Positions 7,842 to 20,000 of a DNA stretch of 20,000 bases are shown one piece after another. Source of the DNA: Eremomyces bilateralis CBS 781.70 (Eukaryota); the NCBI GenBank assembly GCA_010015585.1, contig ML975157.1; one strand, written 5' to 3'. A model generated the notes under the pieces. It was not told the origin of the DNA. It did not search any database and worked only from the letters and a program-made list of their open reading frames with translations. How positions within the stretch are numbered: position 1 is the stretch's first letter; the number at the start of each line of letters is the position of its first letter. The position numbers and the translations under genes were made by a program.

Positions 7842-10626
7842 ATGGCTGCTCTTCATGAGTCGCCCTTGTCGCGGGAATCGCTCATCTTCTCCTCGGTTTT
7901 CTCCTTGTCGGCTGCAACACATACCACTCCGACGCCGCTGTCAACCCCCGACCTTGGGAGCATCGAACCCGGCCAGTCATTTGGCGGCGTGTTTGGGTCC
8001 AACCAACCCTCCCAACAACAATCGGCCGCGCAGCGACAAGTGCGCCGGAATTTGGCATGGAGCTCGGCTACGAGGTTTTTGGGGCAATTTGCCTTGGAGG
8101 ATGCCATGAAAGGCCGGCCGACGGAGTTGCGGGGCATGCCGTCGGATGTACGAGATGCTATGGAATTTCTCCTTATGGGGGGAGGATGTCCACTGCCGGA
8201 GAGCAACGAGGAGAGTCTGGTATGGCGAATGGATTAGATTGGATGGAAGTCAAACTGACGTGGTCAAGGTGGACTGGTACACCAATGAAGCGCTGCGGAG
8301 ATTCGTCGTCGACATTAGCCCCGAGTTGACGACGAAATGGCGAGCTGTAAGACCAGTCGGATCGTCCAGAATTCCCATACTAAAGCGAGTCTTATTGTAG
8401 GACTTTGACGAGCACTCTACCTGGCATATCTTGATATACACCACAAGCAAACTTGTTCAAGCCCATCGACACTTAGCTCAGCCATTAAAGGACATCCTCC
8501 TCCCAATCATCTCTCGTCCATCGAGAAGAGCAGACGACGCCATCGAAGCCCTCACGACCCTCCCGATTATCTCGAGGTTCAACCGAGAACTCCGCGCCGC
8601 CTTCGTTCAGGCAGTCGATGCGGGACGTTTTGCCGAGTATCTAGAACACCTACTGGTCGACACCGGTCGGAAGCTATTCTCGATCGAAGGACGTGGCAAC
8701 GAGAATGGGGAAGGCCCAGAATTGAGCCGCGAAGAGAAGCAAAAGATTCGCGAACGGCTTACGACTCTCTTACGAGGCATCGGCTCTATAGGGCTTGGGG
8801 GGGACAAGTCTACGTGGGTAGTTGGTGCTGCAATGGCGAAATTGCTCGACAATTTCGTAGACAGCCGCCACATGAAAGTTGATTGGTACACGCGGAACTC
8901 TGTGGTGCGCACCTTGAAGCACTGGGTCAAGGAAGGTTACATGAGATATTTCCAAGAAATTATGGCGTGTCTTGAAGTGGAGTCGGAAAGTGGTCCTCAA
9001 CCATCTTCAATCCCACCCGCATCGTTGCAGCGGTGCCAAGAGATTGCCATCAACCGTCTGGGAAGAGCACGAGTGGCGGATCTGTTCGATTTCATTGTGA
9101 GGTGGGATGGGTCACTTGGCGCCATCCGGGATCTGAAGGAGTACATCACTCTCCCTGGTGCTCGTGTTCATCTTACCCACAGCTTCTCCCGCCAGTTGTC
9201 AAGGCGGTTGCTACATGCCGGAGCGACAACAAGTGACATTCTCGACGTGTACGTCTATATCATCAAAGCATTCAACGAGCTTGACCCGAAAGGCGTTTTG
9301 TTGGATCGGGTCGCTCGGCCAATCCGTCGTTACCTGAAAGATCGGGACGACACCGCTCGTATCATCGTAGTCAGTCTGTTAAAGGATGTCGACGAGATCA
9401 TCGCGGATGAGAAGACAGGAAGACTCGATATAGGAGGAAATGTGTCCAAGCAGATTGCGCTGGAAATGAAATATCCCTCGGCACACGCCTTGCAAGAGCA
9501 GGACTATGACCTGGATTGGGGGAATATGGATTGGACTCCGGACCCCATCGATGCGGAACCGGAATACAAGCGATCCAAGTCGTCCGATGTCATCGCCTCC
9601 CTCCTGACGCTCTACGACCGGGAAGATTTCATCACCGAGCTCAAGGACATCCTGGGCGAATATCTTCTCAAGTACGAAGATTCCGACTTCGAGAAGGAGC
9701 AACGTCTCGTCGAGCTCTTCAAAGTCCGCCTAGGCGAAGACAAGATGCAAGCATGCGAGGTGATGCTTCACGATGTGCTTGAATCCAAGCGGATAAACCG
9801 AGACATCAACGCATCTATCAACCGCGAGAATGTTAGGCTCGGTTCGGAGCTCAATGCCCAAATCCTCTCGAGCTACTTCTGGCCCCCGCTCCGAGAGGAT
9901 GCGTTCCGTGTCCCGCAACCTGTCCACGCCCTTCAGCAACGATATGCAGCTGGTTTCGAGGGGATTAAGGATATGCGTCGGCTTCAATGGTATCCAGCAC
10001 TGGGCCAGGTGGAAGTGGAGTTGCAGCTCCAGGACCGCGAATGGCGTGGAGATTGCCATCCATGGCAAGCCAGTGTTGTCTACGCATTCGACGAGTCAAT
10101 CTCAAGCATTTCAGGTCTTGAAAACGACCCGGGCCGTAGCACCACTCCAAGTAGGACGGTTGAGGAACTTAAAATCATGCTTCAAATGGACGAGCAGCTG
10201 GTCTGCAATGCTCTTCAATTCTGGACCGCCCACCGTGTTCTTGTCGAAGTCTCACCAGGGATTTATGAGGTTCAAGAGACTCTCCCTGCGGACGGTGGAT
10301 CATCAGGAGACAAGGCAGGTGGAAGCGGGAAGTCGGCCAGCCGCACCGCTCCACCACTACACACGGAAACAGGGGCGCATGTGTCGGCCGTGAAGAGCCA
10401 GGAGGATCGGTTGATGGAGAACGTGGACATTTACCGGCACTTCATCGTGGGCATGCTGACGAACCAGGGAGCCATGCCCGTGGCGAAAATCCTCATGATG
10501 TTGAAGATGACCATGCCCGGTGGTTTTCCTTTCGGCATGGAGGAGGTGCGGACGTTGCTAGGACGATTAGTGGAGGAGAGAAAGGTGGTGGGACAGGGCG
10601 ATATATATTCGGTGTCTAAGGGATGA
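7842..10626 (+). CDS. APC2: Anaphase-promoting complex subunit 2 (cullin-like), about 893 aa
   Basis: Exons 7842-8219, 8269-8346, 8401-10626 (introns 49 and 54 nt). Diagnostic RLLHAGATTSDILDVY...LDPKGVLLDRVARPIRRYLKDRDDT, WTPDPIDA, CEVMLHDV, ILSSYFWP cullin-homology motifs and a C-terminal winged helix (FIVGMLTNQGAM). Confidence 0.95.
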
Positions 10627-13398: not shown

Positions 13399-15275
13399 AT
13401 GGGCAGCGCCGATGGGGTGTGCAAATCCACTGCTAATGCAGGAAGTCCTAAAGGAGCAGCTCAAGGTTTGTCCCAACGAGACATTCAATCTTGTTCTATT
13501 TTTACTGACCCATTTCCTAGTCTCTTTCAATGCCAACTGTCCAGAGGACGAACTATTTGATCTGGAGCGCAATGTAGAAGTTGCGCGGCACGAAGAGGAG
13601 CTTCAGAAGTTCCTCTCATCCACGGAATGGCCGAAACAATGGAAAGCCTGGGGTTCCTTGTTTGGCTGCTTCTTCCTCATGTTCAACTCTTGGGGCCTTG
13701 TGAATGCCTACGGCACATTTTCATCTCATTATATGCAACACCTAATGCCAAATCGGAACTTACTCCAGCTAAGCACGATTGGAAGTACCGAGAGCTTCTT
13801 GATTTTGATCTTCTCCGGCATCGTTGGTCGCGTGGTCGACGCTGGGATGGCAAGACAGCTGACTATCATTGGAAGCATATTTGTCACTATGGGTATGCTG
13901 TCACTGGCCTTCTGCGCTGGTGACGGCAAATTCGGACAAGGGAACTTCACCTCGATTTGGGTTTGCCAGGGTTTGCTTCAAGGGTTAGGAATGTCTTGCT
14001 TCTTTGTGAGCAGCTCGCAAAGTATGTTCCGAAGCATCATAATTTATCGTCTCGTTGTCTTGTTGCCTCCCGTCCACACGCTTACGGTATCTTTGGAATA
14101 GTCGGATCCTCTTGGTTCCCTTCCGTACGGAAGTCTTTCGTGGTTGGAGTAGTCGCTTCAGGGGCCTCCATTGCTGGGTTCGTGTATCCGATTCTTACCA
14201 AGTTTCTTCTCGGTCCCCTTGGTTGGCGAAACACTATCCTGTGTGTTTGGGCTGTCGTCTTGGTTACTTGTATCGTATCATGCATCTTCTGTGTCCCTAA
14301 CCCACTTCACATGAAGCGTCGGCCGGAGAAATGGCAGACATGGCGTGCGTTCGTTGATTTGGACGCTTTCCATCATCGAGGATTCAACTGTCTTACAGCT
14401 GCGACTTGCTTCATGTTCTTCGGATTCTATGTTGTGTTCTTCAATCTTGAGGAGGTATGCCATTCGCCTTCTTCTCTGCGGGGGTTTTGAACTAACTCTC
14501 CGCAGTGGGCCGCACTCCACGGTTTCGGCTACAAAGACCATGTCATTGGTCTTGACGGCCAGGATGAGCCCGTTCGACACCCAAAGGCTCTCCGCACTTT
14601 CTACCTTCTAAGCATTATGAACGGTAGCAGTGCCGTTGGTCGTATTGGTTCTGCTTACCTTGGCGACAAGTCTGTCTTTCTATTGGTAGTAATAGCGGAT
14701 CTGAGCTGACACCTGACAGGATTCCCACTCCACTTATTCATATGACAGCCACCGGTATCTGCTCTCTCCTGTGTCTCGTCGGCTGGATCCAGGTCGACAG
14801 CGTAGAAAGCACGATTGCCTTTGTCGTGTTATTTGGTGTATTCTCCGGTTCCGTCATTGGCCTCCCTCCAGCCAGTATGGGTTGGATCCTCGGAAAGCAC
14901 GCCGAGGGCCAGCGTCGACTAGGACATTGGGTTGGTTTGATGTACACGTGCTCCGCAATCCCCGCATTTGTTGGACCGATGATTGCTGGTGTCCTTGTGT
15001 CCTACTTGAGAATCTTTCTGCCTATACAGCTATGGGCCGGCATTTGTCTTGGAGTGAGCACAGTGTTCATGTTAGCGGCATGGCATTACGGGAGGCAGCA
15101 TCATGAAACGTATCCCGATACTCCAGTTGTACCAAAGGGCACGACATCCACATCCACTTCTGCTACTGCTTCATGCGCTCCAAGCGTGTGGGCCGACGAT
15201 GAGGAGAAAGAGCAGAAGCCGAGTGATGGAACTGGTGCATCCCAGGTGAGAACCAACACAGGGAGGCTCCGATGA
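13399..15275 (+). CDS. MFS transporter, monocarboxylate porter (Mch5-like) family
   Basis: Exons 13399-13465, 13545-14021, 14102-14454, 14506-14669, 14720-15275, with frame kept across four GT-AG introns. Motifs AWGSLFGCFFLMFNSWGLVNAYGTF, GRVVDAG, QGLLQGLG, GVVASGASIAG, IMNGSSAVGRI, FGVFSG and many hydrophobic segments. Substrate unknown. Confidence 0.88.
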
Positions 15276-15370
15276 TCCGCCTAATGGGTAATCTGATTCC
15301 TATTCAACGCAACAAGGAAAAATAGTAACTAATAAAATAGTAACTAATAAAATCAGACAAAAACAAAAAA

Positions 15371-15489
15371 ACATACAGCAATGGGAGTTCCCACGTGGTC
15401 ACCCACCGTAGTACTATTCCATCTCTAACCTGCTTGAGTACGGCAGAGCGGACGGGATGCCCTATATTCAGGTTGATATGGCCGTATGT
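15371..15489 (-). rRNA. 5S rRNA gene, complete (119 nt)
   Basis: Minus strand ACATACGGCCATATCAACCTGAATATAGGGCATCCCGTCCGCTCTGCC...AGTACTACGGTGGGTGACCACGTGGGAACTCCCATTGCTGTATGT. 5' ACATACGGC pairs with 3' GCTGTATGT, followed by a T-run Pol III terminator. Confidence 0.96.
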
Positions 15490-15557
15490 AGCAGTAAGTG
15501 AAACTTTTCACAATATCAACCTAGCAATCTGCAAAATTCAACAAAACAAAAACAAAA

Positions 15558-15592
15558 ACATACAGCAATGGGAGTTCCCCTATGGTCTCCCA
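15558..15592 (-). pseudogene. 5S rRNA fragment (3' 35 nt plus terminator), truncated at putative Starship insertion site
   Basis: Plus strand ACATACAGCAATGGGAGTTCCC is identical to 15371-15392, then CTATGGTCTCCCA versus ACGTGGTCACCCA in the full copy. Similarity stops abruptly after 15592. Preceded by a similar CAAAA-rich terminator. Confidence 0.88.
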
Positions 15593-15705
15593 GCGGTATA
15601 AACGAGGTCGAAAACAGAGGGCCAATACCGCCGAAAGACGAGGGCCCGTCGAAAATACATTCTGGTAAGGATCGTAAAGATGCCCATTCTCCCTAGTTTT
15701 CCAAT

Positions 15706-15784
15706 CTCGCTCTCAGTCAGGAGTCCTGTTCGCAGTTTCTACAGTCTCGCCCTCAGTCCGGAGCTCCGTTCGCAGTTCTACAGT
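15706..15784 (+). repeat. Imperfect tandem duplication (40 + 39 bp) upstream of the recombinase
   Basis: CTCGCTCTCAGTCAGGAGTCCTGTTCGCAGTTTCTACAGT followed by CTCGCCCTCAGTCCGGAGCTCCGTTCGCAGTTCTACAGT. Confidence 0.85.
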
Positions 15785-15888
15785 ACCCTTCTTCAGTTCC
15801 AGTTCCATCAGGTTCGGAGGTAGTCGACGCTATCAACGCTCCACGCAGCCAAAATCCTCGACGCCTATTCCAAGATACGTCTTTGACT

Positions 15889-18372
15889 ATGGCGCCACGA
15901 CGCACTATTAAAAAGGGCGAAGCCGGAGAACAAGAGGCAAAGGAGCGTCTAGCTGGCTTCCAGAGCAAGCCCCTCGACGATACGGTCCCAGTGTCGGACA
16001 GAACTACCTACAAGCGCGGCTACGCCATGTGGCTCTTCAAGGAGTACGAAACACCTGGACTTATCATGCCTATGACCTACACTCACATCCTCTAGATACG
16101 TTCGCGACGTCCTACACCGCGAGCCGGACGATACCTGGTTATCCCTTTGCAGCTCTTCACCAGTGGAGGTAGCCTTGGCTCAGGATACATGTCGTGCCTT
16201 TCTCCAGACCTATGTCTCCGACTCTTCGGTCTCCCGGGTTGCGTTGGGAGACCAAGAATCCGAGGAGGTCCGACAGGTTAATCGAGTATCAAGCGTCCTG
16301 ACAGTCTGGAGAGCTCTTGTGCAGGAAGGAGACGAAGCAGTCCTTGCCCCCAAAAGAAGAGAGAACAGGCACGCCGCGAGGCAATGGAGGCTCGTCAATC
16401 CAAGTGGAAAACTGATTTCAGGCCCCGTATGGGAGGTTTCCAATGTGAGGTCTGCCCTCTATTTGTGCGGGGAAGGATACTAACGTCCCCGTAGTGGATT
16501 GTCCACGACCTTCCTTTGCTTACCGGTATCTCTAACGAACTCAAGCGCCAAAAGCGGGCTGCGACTGCTCAGGATATAGTAGTCATTATGCAGGCTCTCC
16601 TAAATCGACATCGCGATATCCTCCACTCTACGGCACAACTTAGCGACTTCGCTATGATCGTGCTCTGTATGGCTATTGGCGGATTCCGGACTAACTGTCC
16701 TAGAAACCTGAAGTATGCAGACGTCAGGATAGGACTCGCCAACGTTGGCGGGAAAACGAACGCGTTCGTACGAATCCGAATGCCAGAAAACAAACTGCGA
16801 GTGGCTTCCCTAAAGCCTGCGAGCCCGGGGCGCGAGTTTGCCGTGGCCATTTTACCATGCCGACTGGTATGCCTTGCGAGTCACGTCATTGGCCGCGCTC
16901 TAGCACGGCGTGCTTTCAGGGCCGGATATACGTCCTTTGATCAAGTTTTGACCTGGCCCAACCTTCGAGGTTGCAAAGTCCTTTTCCTTCCTTGGGCACA
17001 AGGCCTGGGCGATCTCCCATTCGTCGATATCAGCGGGTCGCAGTTCTACAGGATATGGTATCGCTGCTGCGAAGTCGCCGGCATGGAGGATCCTCCGATC
17101 CCCTACTCTATGCGTGTCGGTTCCGGGGGCAAAATTATTGGAATTCTCGGCGAGTTGCTTGGGAATTGGATGCTTATGCACAAATCGAATACTCACCAGG
17201 AGTATTATTTCCCGGATTACGTGTCTCAGAATCTAGCGCGTGTCACGCTGGGCGTGCTCGCGCCTCCTGAAGATGCCCTTTTCTCCCTTCTGTCGGACTT
17301 ATCATCCACGGCGGATCCCTTTGCCCCATGCCACCTGAGTGAAGAAGAGTTTAAAAAGCTTCTTGAGAGACGAGATGTCCAAGCTCTTCAGGACCATAAG
17401 ACAGGACAGCGCAACCTATTGGACCAGTTATCCTACTTAGCTATTCGAGAGAAGCGGGAGAAATACTTTCGCAATATGGAAGATGCACGGGCGCTGGGTG
17501 GCAATATCACCATTACCGAGTCGCAGATTTCGAACAGCGACGTCATCGTTGATGCAACCCCCGTTGATGAAGAAGGCCGGGCTTCATTTATTGAGTTACT
17601 GGCTAGCTACTCCCGCCTTTTGAAGAGAAGCAAGAAGAATGACCCTAACCGAAACGTTCCAGATCTATGTCCTCGGTCTATCTGCGTTCTTTGCGATCCG
17701 ACTGGGAAGGCTTTATCTTTCTCACAACATTCGTCTCTCACCAGGCACTATCGGATCATACATTTACGGCATGGTCACCTAGACGAAATGCGCGAATGCC
17801 CAGTTCCTGGCTGCGGCTTGGCTATTGACGCGGGCGTATCTCCGTTTTACTGTCACTTAGAACGCCAGCACGGCAAATACTATACGCCCGCTGCTCATCG
17901 ACACATCGAACGTTCAATCTGCGTCCTTTGCGATCCGACTGGGCGTCGGTTGTCCTTTTCCCAGCGCCAGAATTTGACAGCACACTTTAAGGCTGATCAT
18001 CTACCCTTGGGACATCTCGATCAAGCTCGTCAATGCCCAGTTCCTGCCTGCGGGTCAAAGATTCAAGCTGGAATACAACCATTTTGCGATCACTTGCAGC
18101 GCACGCATGGGAAGCATTACACGCCTCATCTATGCAACAATGGGTTAAAGCAGCGTGAACATCATCGATCGTATAGGCGAGTTCAACCAACATCCGAATT
18201 TCAGAAAAAGAGCGCAGTTGCAATTAGAGCAAAACGGAAAGCAGTTGATGATATTGGGAGGCCCGACTTTGATCTGCTCGAGCAAACGCTCCAGGACGAA
18301 ATCTTTGCTGTAGATTCGGATGAAGACCCGGTTGCGAAGAAACGAAAGCAAAACGTAGTTGCAGATTATTAA
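15889..18372 (+). CDS. Tyrosine recombinase, DUF3435 Starship captain-like, with duplicated C-terminal C2H2-type zinc-finger module, about 793 aa
   Basis: Exons 15889-16043, 16096-16444, 16495-18372 (introns 52 and 50 nt, CTCAC/CTAAC branch sites, frame kept). Recombinase motifs in order: GGFR (R), ENK (K), PYSMRVG (YxxR), LMH (H), EYY (Y), plus LVCLASHVIGRALARRAF and DPFAPCHLS, which resemble DUF3435 proteins. Confidence 0.82.
17674..18126 (+). repeat. Intragenic tandem duplication (237 nt / 79 aa period) of a double zinc-finger module
   Basis: RSICVLCDPTG...LTRHYRIIHL...CPVPGC...HLERQHGKYYTP from 17674 and RSICVLCDPTG...LTAHFKADHL...CPVPAC...HLQRTHGKHYTP from 17911. Confidence 0.92.
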
Positions 18373-18779: not shown

Positions 18780-19351
18780 CTACATTAATAGTCGCATAGC
18801 CCAGGTCACAGTGTTCGCCTCACACTTCGTACCATCCGCCATCGTCATCGGCGTCGCGCATCCCCAGACGCATTGCCCAAACGTCGTCCCATCGATGCAG
18901 TAAAATCCGGTCTCCGAGCATGGGACCTGGCCGGCTGCGCATGAACCTTGCGGATTAGCGACAGGGGCGGCAGGAACAGGCTTGGCCGGAGCAAGTGGCG
19001 GTTGGGCTGCCGCGAGCGAAGGTTTTGAAGAGACCGGCGCAGTAGTGGGGACTGCGAGTTGCTGCTCAGGAGCAGCGTTAGAGGGAGAGGCCGAGGGTGC
19101 GGCGGAAGAGGCACCGGGAGCGAAGACTCCACCGGGGGGATTGTTGCCAGCGGGAGCCTTAGCAGCGCCGCAGTTCGATGGGACCGCGATTGGGAACTGA
19201 GATTGAGCGGGACCAGCTGGCTTCTTTGTAGTGACGTACTTCCCTGGGTTGGGGAAGTCGACGTTCACGGATTGAGTGGTCCCGCAAGATCCGGAAATCT
19301 CGCCGATGTTCGCGACGAACAGAGGCGGAAGCTCATTGAGCTTGTCTTGAC
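18780..19351 (-). pseudogene. 3' part of an AA11-like lytic polysaccharide monooxygenase (end of catalytic domain, P/A/S-rich linker, Cys-rich X278-like module), interrupted by a hAT insertion
   Basis: Frame extends upstream of ORF 19268: QDKLNELPPLFVANIGEISGSCGTTQSVNVDFPNPGKYV, matching the AA11 LPxxFVANI...C.T....FPNPG pattern. Ends with CSETGFYCIDGTTFGQCVWG...MADGTKC. The frame is cut at the hAT terminus at 19352. Confidence 0.75.
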
Positions 19352-19365
19352 TAGAGGTCCGAAAC

Positions 19366-19497
19366 GAATATGAATAATATGAATAATATGAATAATTTGC
19401 GAATATGAATAAAGTCTTGGCGAATAATGTGAATATGAATACGCCTTATATTCATATTCGCGATATTCATGAATATTCATATTATTCATGAATATTT
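19366..19497. repeat. Subterminal direct and inverted GAATA(T) repeat array of the hAT element
   Basis: Multiple GAATATGAATA/ATGAATAAT units, then inverted ATTCATATTC units and palindromic ATTCATGAAT. Confidence 0.85.
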
Positions 19498-19770: not shown

Positions 19771-20000
19771 TCAATTAGGAAAGGATTCGTTATCATAGTG
19801 TCCCTTCAGGAGTACAAGCCATCTCATCGTCTCTGCATTCAGAGAGTGTCTCCTAAGACCTAGCACGTCTCGCGCACCACTAAAAAGACGTTCTACGCCT
19901 ACTTCAGCAGAGGGAACCGGGAGATAGTCGCGTGCCGCTTGAGCCATGCAAGGAAAGTCAGGTGCATTTGCTTTCCACCATTTCAATACCCAGTCAGGGT
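19771..20000 (-). CDS. hAT transposase C-terminal dimerisation domain (partial)
   Basis: WVLKWWKANAPDFPCMAQAARDYLPVPSAEVGVERLFSGARDVLGLRRHSLNAETMR matches the hATC consensus (WW...FP.....A..YL..P......ER.FS......R..L). Confidence 0.93.
   Translation of the reverse strand, partial: PDWVLKWWKANAPDFPCMAQAARDYLPVPSAEVGVERLFSGARDVLGLRRHSLNAETMRWLVLLKGHYDNESFPN

Follow-up and report, generated by a model that had tools for sequence, protein, structure and literature searches.

How a Starship element chooses its landing site is an open question, and the locus described here raises it in a concrete form. In a 20,000-nucleotide (nt) stretch of contig ML975157.1 from Eremomyces bilateralis CBS 781.70 (GenBank assembly GCA_010015585.1), referred to here as the window and numbered from its first base, a Starship captain gene coding for a tyrosine recombinase lies beside a broken 5S ribosomal RNA (rRNA) gene, and its product carries, towards the C-terminus, two copies of a zinc-finger pair. 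What do these fingers do for the recombinase, and do they read the 5S gene? As detailed below, the finger array is a typical architecture of the Arwing captain family and not private to the window protein. We take it to be an accessory domain with which the recombinase binds DNA sequence-specifically, acting on the integration site, the element end or both, with a probability of about 0.6.

The captain gene and the parts of its product are located as follows:

15889..18372, + strand: Starship captain gene (tyrosine recombinase, 793 aa), exons 15889-16043, 16096-16444 and 16495-18372
16044-16095 and 16445-16494, + strand: captain introns, read from the sequence
16573..17466, + strand: DUF3435, the tyrosine recombinase core (Pfam PF11917, residues 195-492 of the protein P0002)
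17674..17910, + strand: zinc-finger module 1 (79 codons), with finger F1 at 17683-17763 (CxxC-x17-HxxxxH) and finger F2 at 17797-17871 (CPVPGC-x13-HxxxxH)
17911..18147, + strand: zinc-finger module 2 (79 codons), in tandem with module 1 and a diverged copy of it, with finger F3 at 17920-18000 and finger F4 at 18034-18108
18148..18372, + strand: C-terminal tail, basic then acidic in translation, containing KKSAVAIRAKRKA and KKRKQ

The open frame at 16516-18372 is part of the last exon of this three-exon gene. The introns are short, both bounded by GT..AG, and a CTAAC branch site is present in one of them. The spliced product is identical to P0002, a 793-residue hypothetical protein of Eremomyces bilateralis CBS 781.70, and a tblastn comparison of P0002 with the window recovered exons 1 and 2 at 100% identity. 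The match to DUF3435 (E 5.7e-16, 58.9 bits against a cut-off of 25.8) bears out the initial annotation, which had called the protein a recombinase and a captain. Indeed, the gene is already catalogued in the starfish tables S3 and S4 (PMC11162782 supplement) as erebil1_347678, 'tyr', family 9, and family 9 is Arwing in Table 1 of that paper; the Arwing assignment used here is that of table S4 read with Table 1, and not of a recombinase tree of our own. The supplement gives Eremomyces bilateralis a tyrCount of 15 and an elementCount of 0.

The finger region consists of two 79-residue repeats with four fingers and every ligand kept, as the initial annotation had stated; translation, BLASTP and motif reading all agree on this, and position 18126, where that annotation ended the domain, is where the alignable part of the second unit stops. 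Each module is made of an 'a' finger, C-x2-C-x17-H-x4-H with a classical F-x5-L-x2-H helix, followed by a 'b' finger, C-x4-C (CPVPxC)-x13-H-x4-H. The C2H2 ligand pattern is thus present with longer spacers (x17 and x13) than in C-x2-4-C-x12-H-x3-5-H, and Pfam zf-C2H2 matches only finger 1, at 15.8 bits (E 0.019), below the cut-off of 25.2. The modules align without gaps over 72 residues with 46 identities (64%, E 7e-35); all eight ligand positions are identical between them, so that the 16 ligands are intact. As DNA they share 134 of 216 positions and just 32 of 72 third codon positions. The ratio of non-synonymous to synonymous substitution (dN/dS) between the modules is 0.09 (NG86) to 0.22 (LWL85), with synonymous and third positions saturated. 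Low dN/dS combined with so few identical third positions indicates that the duplication is old and that both copies were kept by selection; the finger domain is under purifying selection. The tail that follows has 15 K+R and 14 D+E in 73 residues, and relatives have a GRKRKR tract at the position equivalent to its basic stretch. KKSAVAIRAKRKA and KKRKQ resemble nuclear localisation signals, and the basic tail probably serves nuclear import.

In word-based searches, neither the module nor the full-length sequence matched any protein other than the window protein itself. A single-sequence HMMER scan with the two-module stretch, on the other hand, gave 10 matches at E<=1e-3, namely the query, one unrelated animal protein with immunoglobulin (Ig) repeats, P0003, a decayed paralogue from the same genome, and seven further fungal proteins or fragments, five of which have a-b pairs amounting to four fingers and two of which have two fingers. 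A profile of 15 sequences extended this to 40 proteins of 663-2000 residues: 26 fungal captain-like proteins, the query and 13 generic animal zinc-finger proteins. PF11917 was detected in 19 of the 26 captain-like proteins and a C-terminal chromodomain in four. Counted by pattern, these 26 proteins have 3-12 fingers each; four is the commonest number (10 proteins), with six in 7 proteins and ten to twelve in 6. A scan of metagenome contigs with a 3-row alignment added 18 loci, from which five (L014-L018) were set aside as ordinary many-finger genes and L013 was left out of further analysis. Eight of the remaining loci showed the captain core and/or fingers by tblastn; at L012 the tblastn match is N-terminal only and the fingers rest on the alignment scan. 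Finger counts in ten metagenome loci run from 2 to 7 or more. When carriers were cross-referenced by protein number to the starfish tables, 8 of 8 belonged to family 9. These results show that the a-b pair is family-wide, in numbers from 2 to 12 fingers per protein, which answers the comparison of finger number across homologues that the initial annotation had called for.

At the upper end of this range, P0016-P0021 and locus L003 have 10-12 fingers (five or six a-b pairs), two of them together with a chromodomain; the gene models of these relatives start near the catalytic tyrosine region, and they are therefore probably truncated captains. In the helix of the a-finger, position +1 is R in 18 of 24 and +6 is R or K in 20 of 24, while -1, +2 and +3 vary. 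Variable -1, +2 and +3 beside conserved +1 and +6 is the pattern expected if specificity diversifies.

The history of the duplication was followed in a quick IQ-TREE tree of 49 modules over 71 columns; with so few columns and many unresolved forks, only its well-supported (starred) branches were used. The distal modules of the other proteins form one clade of 21 rows with a Shimodaira-Hasegawa-like approximate likelihood-ratio test (SH-aLRT) value of 97, from which it follows that the m1-m2 pair of the family is ancestral. The two Eremomyces modules are sisters (SH-aLRT 97) and stand outside the distal clade, among the proximal modules, and both bear the proximal 'HG-x-x-H/Y-x-P' ending. Thus, judged by sequence, both are of the proximal (m1) type and derive from an old, lineage-specific tandem duplication separate from m1-m2. 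Similar private duplications are seen in P0022 (SH-aLRT 95) and P0024 (SH-aLRT 100).

An AlphaFold2 model built on 15 aligned relatives (alignment A5) predicts four beta-beta-alpha units with a mean predicted local distance difference test score (pLDDT) of 85.2; module 1 would form two of them, at model residues 9-38 and 47-73. The top Foldseek rows against the PDB are all DNA-bound C2H2 arrays, CTCF, TFIIIA, GLI, WT1 and KLF4, with CTCF (E 5.8e-3) ranked above TFIIIA (rank 5, E 9e-3). By sequence, the best PDB match is the two-finger chain 2dlk_A, at E 0.06.

The surroundings of the captain bear on what such a domain would act upon. The 5S genes and the captain-proximal end of the element comprise:

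15370..15489, - strand: intact 5S rRNA gene (Rfam RF00001, 88.2 bits, E 4.7e-18, full length 1-120)
15557..15595, - strand: 3' fragment of a 5S rRNA gene, exact over nt 98-120 (15557-15579) and 5S-like to about nt 82 (15580-15595)
15580..15888, + strand: captain-proximal element end region, from the repeat search and motif positions
15585-15599/15625-15639: inverted repeat in the element end, from the repeat search
15609-15623/15632-15646: 15-nt repeats in the element end, from the repeat search
~15641-15651: GGGCCCGTC motif, ~65 base pairs (bp) inside the element end, from motif positions
15697-15736/15737-15776: 40-bp tandem repeat of 80% identity upstream of the captain, from the repeat search

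The start of the captain is 290 bp from the 5S break, and the gene is oriented away from it. In the broken gene, blastn-short found 23 of 23 identities over nt 98-120, and the likeness that reaches 15595 (nt 82) was found as repeat family D1, 41 of 48 positions being identical (85%); local alignment scored 53, where 100 shuffles reached at most 28, with no likeness past 15595. The initial annotation had placed the break near nt 84. As the exact match ends at nt 98 and the likeness at nt 82, nt 84 does fall within the break zone of nt 82-97, inside which the exact base is ambiguous. Counted by hand, 14 of 21 positions are 5S-like over nt 77-97, just past the exact match. The 5S-like bases past the exact match may belong either to a variant 5S target gene or to a 5S-like arm on the element end. 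Scanned by itself, the partial 5S gave only chance-level rows in Rfam, and an Rfam scan by E-value over 1401 bases found no 5S besides the intact gene. The two 5S genes are 67 bp apart, their starts are 187 bp apart and their spacers are unlike. We read the intact gene as host flank, because contigs of the single-copy flank extend into it as far as 15387, where they end. Just past its terminator, at 15319-15348, 15 nt are perfectly duplicated in tandem (AAAATAGTAACTAAT, two copies).

Within the element end, the 40-bp tandem repeats are, by their arrangement, candidate binding sites for the recombinase or its fingers; some genomic copies are without one repeat unit (joints 15737>15804 and 15719>15777). 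GGGCCCGTC includes the CCCG/GGGC core reported for Arwing, which could be chance, and it also includes CCCGTC, a hexamer present in the 5S gene too and the curated direct repeat of two Fusarium elements (PMC11162782 table S1). CCCGTC occurs upstream of the captain in the window and at the metagenome loci L009 and L002, at a frequency compatible with chance. A search for motifs common to the window end region and the sequence upstream of related captains gave only matches of 9-14 nt at E >=1.

To place the element in its genome, contigs from two sequencing runs (X1 and X2) of the apparent source organism were compared with 14600-17000. As far as the intact 5S, the left flank has single-copy depth (~240 and 168 in the two runs), and the summed contig depth over 15653-17000 is ~3-26x single copy, the repeated sequence beginning at the 5S fragment. 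In the element end at 15580-15888, too, coverage is many times that of single-copy DNA. One contig has 105 nt of unrelated flank before 15548, beyond the 5S terminator, and so represents a different site. Multi-copy depth, a different flank and paralogues on other scaffolds together are evidence of mobility, and the earlier proposal of an element inserted in a 5S gene holds, with at least one other copy flanked differently beyond the 5S terminator. The element is a multi-copy, 5S-associated Starship whose captain is intact in the window and whose far end lies beyond it; the scaffold ends ~8 kb past the end coordinate that starfish gives for the captain gene. Other copies have decayed. C>T and G>A changes make up 69 of 156 listed differences in X1 and 77 of 161 in X2, a share consistent with decay of the repeat-induced point mutation (RIP) type. 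The paralogue P0014 of the same genome has an H>Y change in finger 1 and a C>Y change and has lost part of module 2, and P0003 is frameshifted.

We also considered that the element might restore the 5S gene that it breaks. The idea arose from the gene model of P0014, whose N-terminus reads through DNA like that of the window at 15457-15477 and 15525-15660, but it was rejected as a general rule, since the unique flank (which stops at 15387) and the other copies (left of 15548) diverge at the 5S terminator. On its own, different scaffold the P0014 model seems to run through the same spacer and into part of an intact 5S; its locus may therefore share the flank seen in the window.

Does the array, then, read the 5S gene? 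The initial annotation had raised the possibility that the duplicated finger pairs bind box C of the 5S internal control region, as TFIIIA does, and thereby direct insertion, a reading that we consider unlikely. Its appeal is clear: the break lies between nt 82 and 97, which overlaps box C (+80 to +97) of the Xenopus gene, the element is multi-copy with at least one copy flanked differently beyond the 5S terminator, and a lineage-specific module duplication could mark retargeting. Moreover, all eight cross-referenced finger-bearing captains are Arwing, whose insertion sites are mostly in 5S ribosomal DNA (rDNA) (PMC11162782). However, this association at the family level is confounded by descent, and some carriers of the fingers appear to lie away from 5S genes. 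At none of five related metagenome loci does the DNA upstream of the captain (151 to 2401 bp, local alignment) contain 5S sequence, whole or partial: there was no 5S gene, no short 5S match near the captain, no weak Rfam match and no alignment above the shuffles, the window itself serving as control in the same comparison (53 against a shuffle maximum of 28). This null counts as moderate evidence, because the probe was the Eremomyces 5S and the element ends at those loci were not located. The Arwing captain kredeu2_504220, which has the fingers and a chromodomain, heads an automatically annotated starfish element with the direct repeats attttc/tttttc, and the Enterprise captain Kirc, comparable by description only, joins a zinc-finger domain to the target RGGTAG (bioRxiv 10.1101/2020.03.25.007153). 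At least five different 5S sites are used in the three families associated with 5S rDNA, of which Arwing is one (PMC11162782). Finally, of the four positions that canonically contact bases, three vary across the family, and TFIIIA, at its fifth place among the Foldseek matches, shows no special likeness and is no closer than CTCF. Taken together, the association between Arwing and 5S is real at the family level, the comparison with TFIIIA and box C is an analogy and not a relationship, and reading of the 5S internal promoter by the fingers is left unsupported; it is plausible that the array contributes to the choice of site, but not as a dedicated 5S reader or one of the TFIIIA kind.

The accessory DNA-binding domain that we favour would work as follows. 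The four C2H2-type fingers (two a-b pairs) and the basic tract would make up the C-terminal accessory domain of the Arwing captain, the array would hold the recombinase on particular DNA, at the integration site, over the repeat-rich 300 bp with which the element begins, or at both places, and gain or loss of finger pairs would shift its binding specificity. Some of our data weigh against this reading. The b-type finger is atypical and Pfam calls no finger above its cut-off; a single-sequence AlphaFold2 model reaches a pLDDT of just 35.5, which makes it useless, so that the good model rests on a shallow 15-row alignment; and the Foldseek matches are weak (best E 5.8e-3, none <=0.001, with template-modelling (TM) scores of 0.15-0.25). 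The family membership of the carriers rests on eight identifiers; four others are absent from the starfish tables, as are the two decayed Eremomyces paralogues, and a fifth coincides only with a coordinate there. In addition, C2H2 pairs can mediate protein-protein or RNA contacts too. The array might accordingly be a module for protein contacts (synapsis or multimerisation), RNA binding or chromatin tethering and no DNA reader. It sits at the C-terminus, a part of tyrosine recombinases that often makes inter-subunit contacts, a chromodomain follows the fingers in four of the 26 relatives, the b-finger is non-canonical and the domain is only mildly basic (19 K+R against 12 D+E in 166 residues). 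Yet the classical F-x5-L-x2-H helix is retained in the a-finger, as are R at +1 and R/K at +6, the structural neighbours are all DNA-bound arrays, and the number of modules varies as it does in DNA-reading finger arrays, so that we regard a role restricted to such contacts as improbable. That the duplicated module is no more than a functionless relic in neutral decay, as the decay of the same-genome copies P0014 (loss in module 2, H>Y in finger 1) and P0003 (frameshift) could suggest, is hardly credible for the window copy, which has an open frame, 16 intact ligands and low dN/dS despite saturated synonymous sites. A bolder extension of the favoured DNA-binding role seems doubtful to us: that the a-b array sets the Arwing integration site, that gain, loss and re-duplication of pairs retarget elements between 5S positions and non-5S sites, and that the m1-m1' arrangement places the Eremomyces element in the box C part of the gene. 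If it were true, the site choice of Starships would be readable, and perhaps reprogrammable, from the finger sequence.

It is useful to set the window captain beside known systems. Like Arwing captains it has DUF3435 and is the first gene beside a broken 5S, as at most Arwing insertion sites, and GGGCCCGTC near the element end recalls the Arwing core; a long direct repeat is described for Arwing together with the CCCG/GGGC core, whereas the window shows the captain end only (PMC11162782). In the available text of the same paper a zinc finger is mentioned for Enterprise only, and a finger array of Arwing is not described there. Kirc has the order recombinase, zinc-finger domain, chromodomain, of which the first two are as in the window (bioRxiv 10.1101/2020.03.25.007153). 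It differs in that Enterprise is family 6 and that its target is not 5S, while the window protein is without the chromodomain, the fingers being likened by description alone; four relatives of the window captain do add a C-terminal chromodomain, like Kirc. With TFIIIA, CTCF, GLI and WT1 the likeness lies in tandem beta-beta-alpha fingers, the a-finger of the window having the classical spacing F-x5-L-x2-H-x4-H. Unlike in those arrays, the window fingers alternate between a and b, their linker has 11 residues and is not TGEKP, and the b-finger has a long loop from knuckle to helix; TFIIIA has nine fingers against four here, and past the generic motif (Pfam zf-C2H2, E 0.019) there is no sequence relationship with the classical arrays.

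The arm-binding domain of lambda Int and the integrative elements that target tRNA genes offer a functional parallel, in which a tyrosine recombinase with an extra DNA-binding domain is directed to a conserved RNA gene; a 2021 preprint makes the comparison as well. By analogy, the window captain would combine a recombinase, an extra domain, a repeat-rich end and an RNA-gene target; in contrast to the lambda Int type, however, its extra domain is a C-terminal zinc-finger array, its arm-type sites are putative only and the 5S gene is not restored.

The captain listing, the zinc fingers of Kirc and the 5S targeting of Arwing are already in print. In the Starship captain literature as available in part, and leaving tables S11-S15 of PMC11162782 outside its scope, we did not find the a-b pair structure, its spread across Arwing, its range of copy number or its lineage-specific re-duplications, and among the titles and opening lines of abstracts on zinc fingers or target-site DNA-binding domains in Starship captains none pointed to a test of captain fingers. 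The window captain is thus a well-characterised case of a known class, with a predicted function for its array. Captain domains other than DUF3435 have been proposed for the study of site choice (PMC11162782), and the present family offers that question a concrete object, a modular array whose size ranges from one to about six finger pairs and which individual lineages have duplicated anew. Should the array read DNA, setting the number of fingers and their contact residues against curated insertion sites could explain why 5S targeting evolved repeatedly.

Further features of the window flank the captain on both sides. In the left flank, host genes include an APC2/cullin homologue at 8431-10626 (+ strand; TPR_ANAPC2, E 2.1e-32) and a fragment of a major facilitator superfamily (MFS) transporter at 14628-15275 (+ strand), which ends ~100 bp from the intact 5S. 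Downstream of the captain, an open frame of 221 codons at 18780-19445 (- strand) codes for a Pro/Ala-rich protein with a Cys-rich end; Pfam gives no match for it, and it is a possible cargo gene. At 19771-19998 (- strand) the terminal part of a hAT transposase (Dimer_Tnp_hAT, E 7.9e-11) runs off the window, marking a second transposon inside or beside the Starship.

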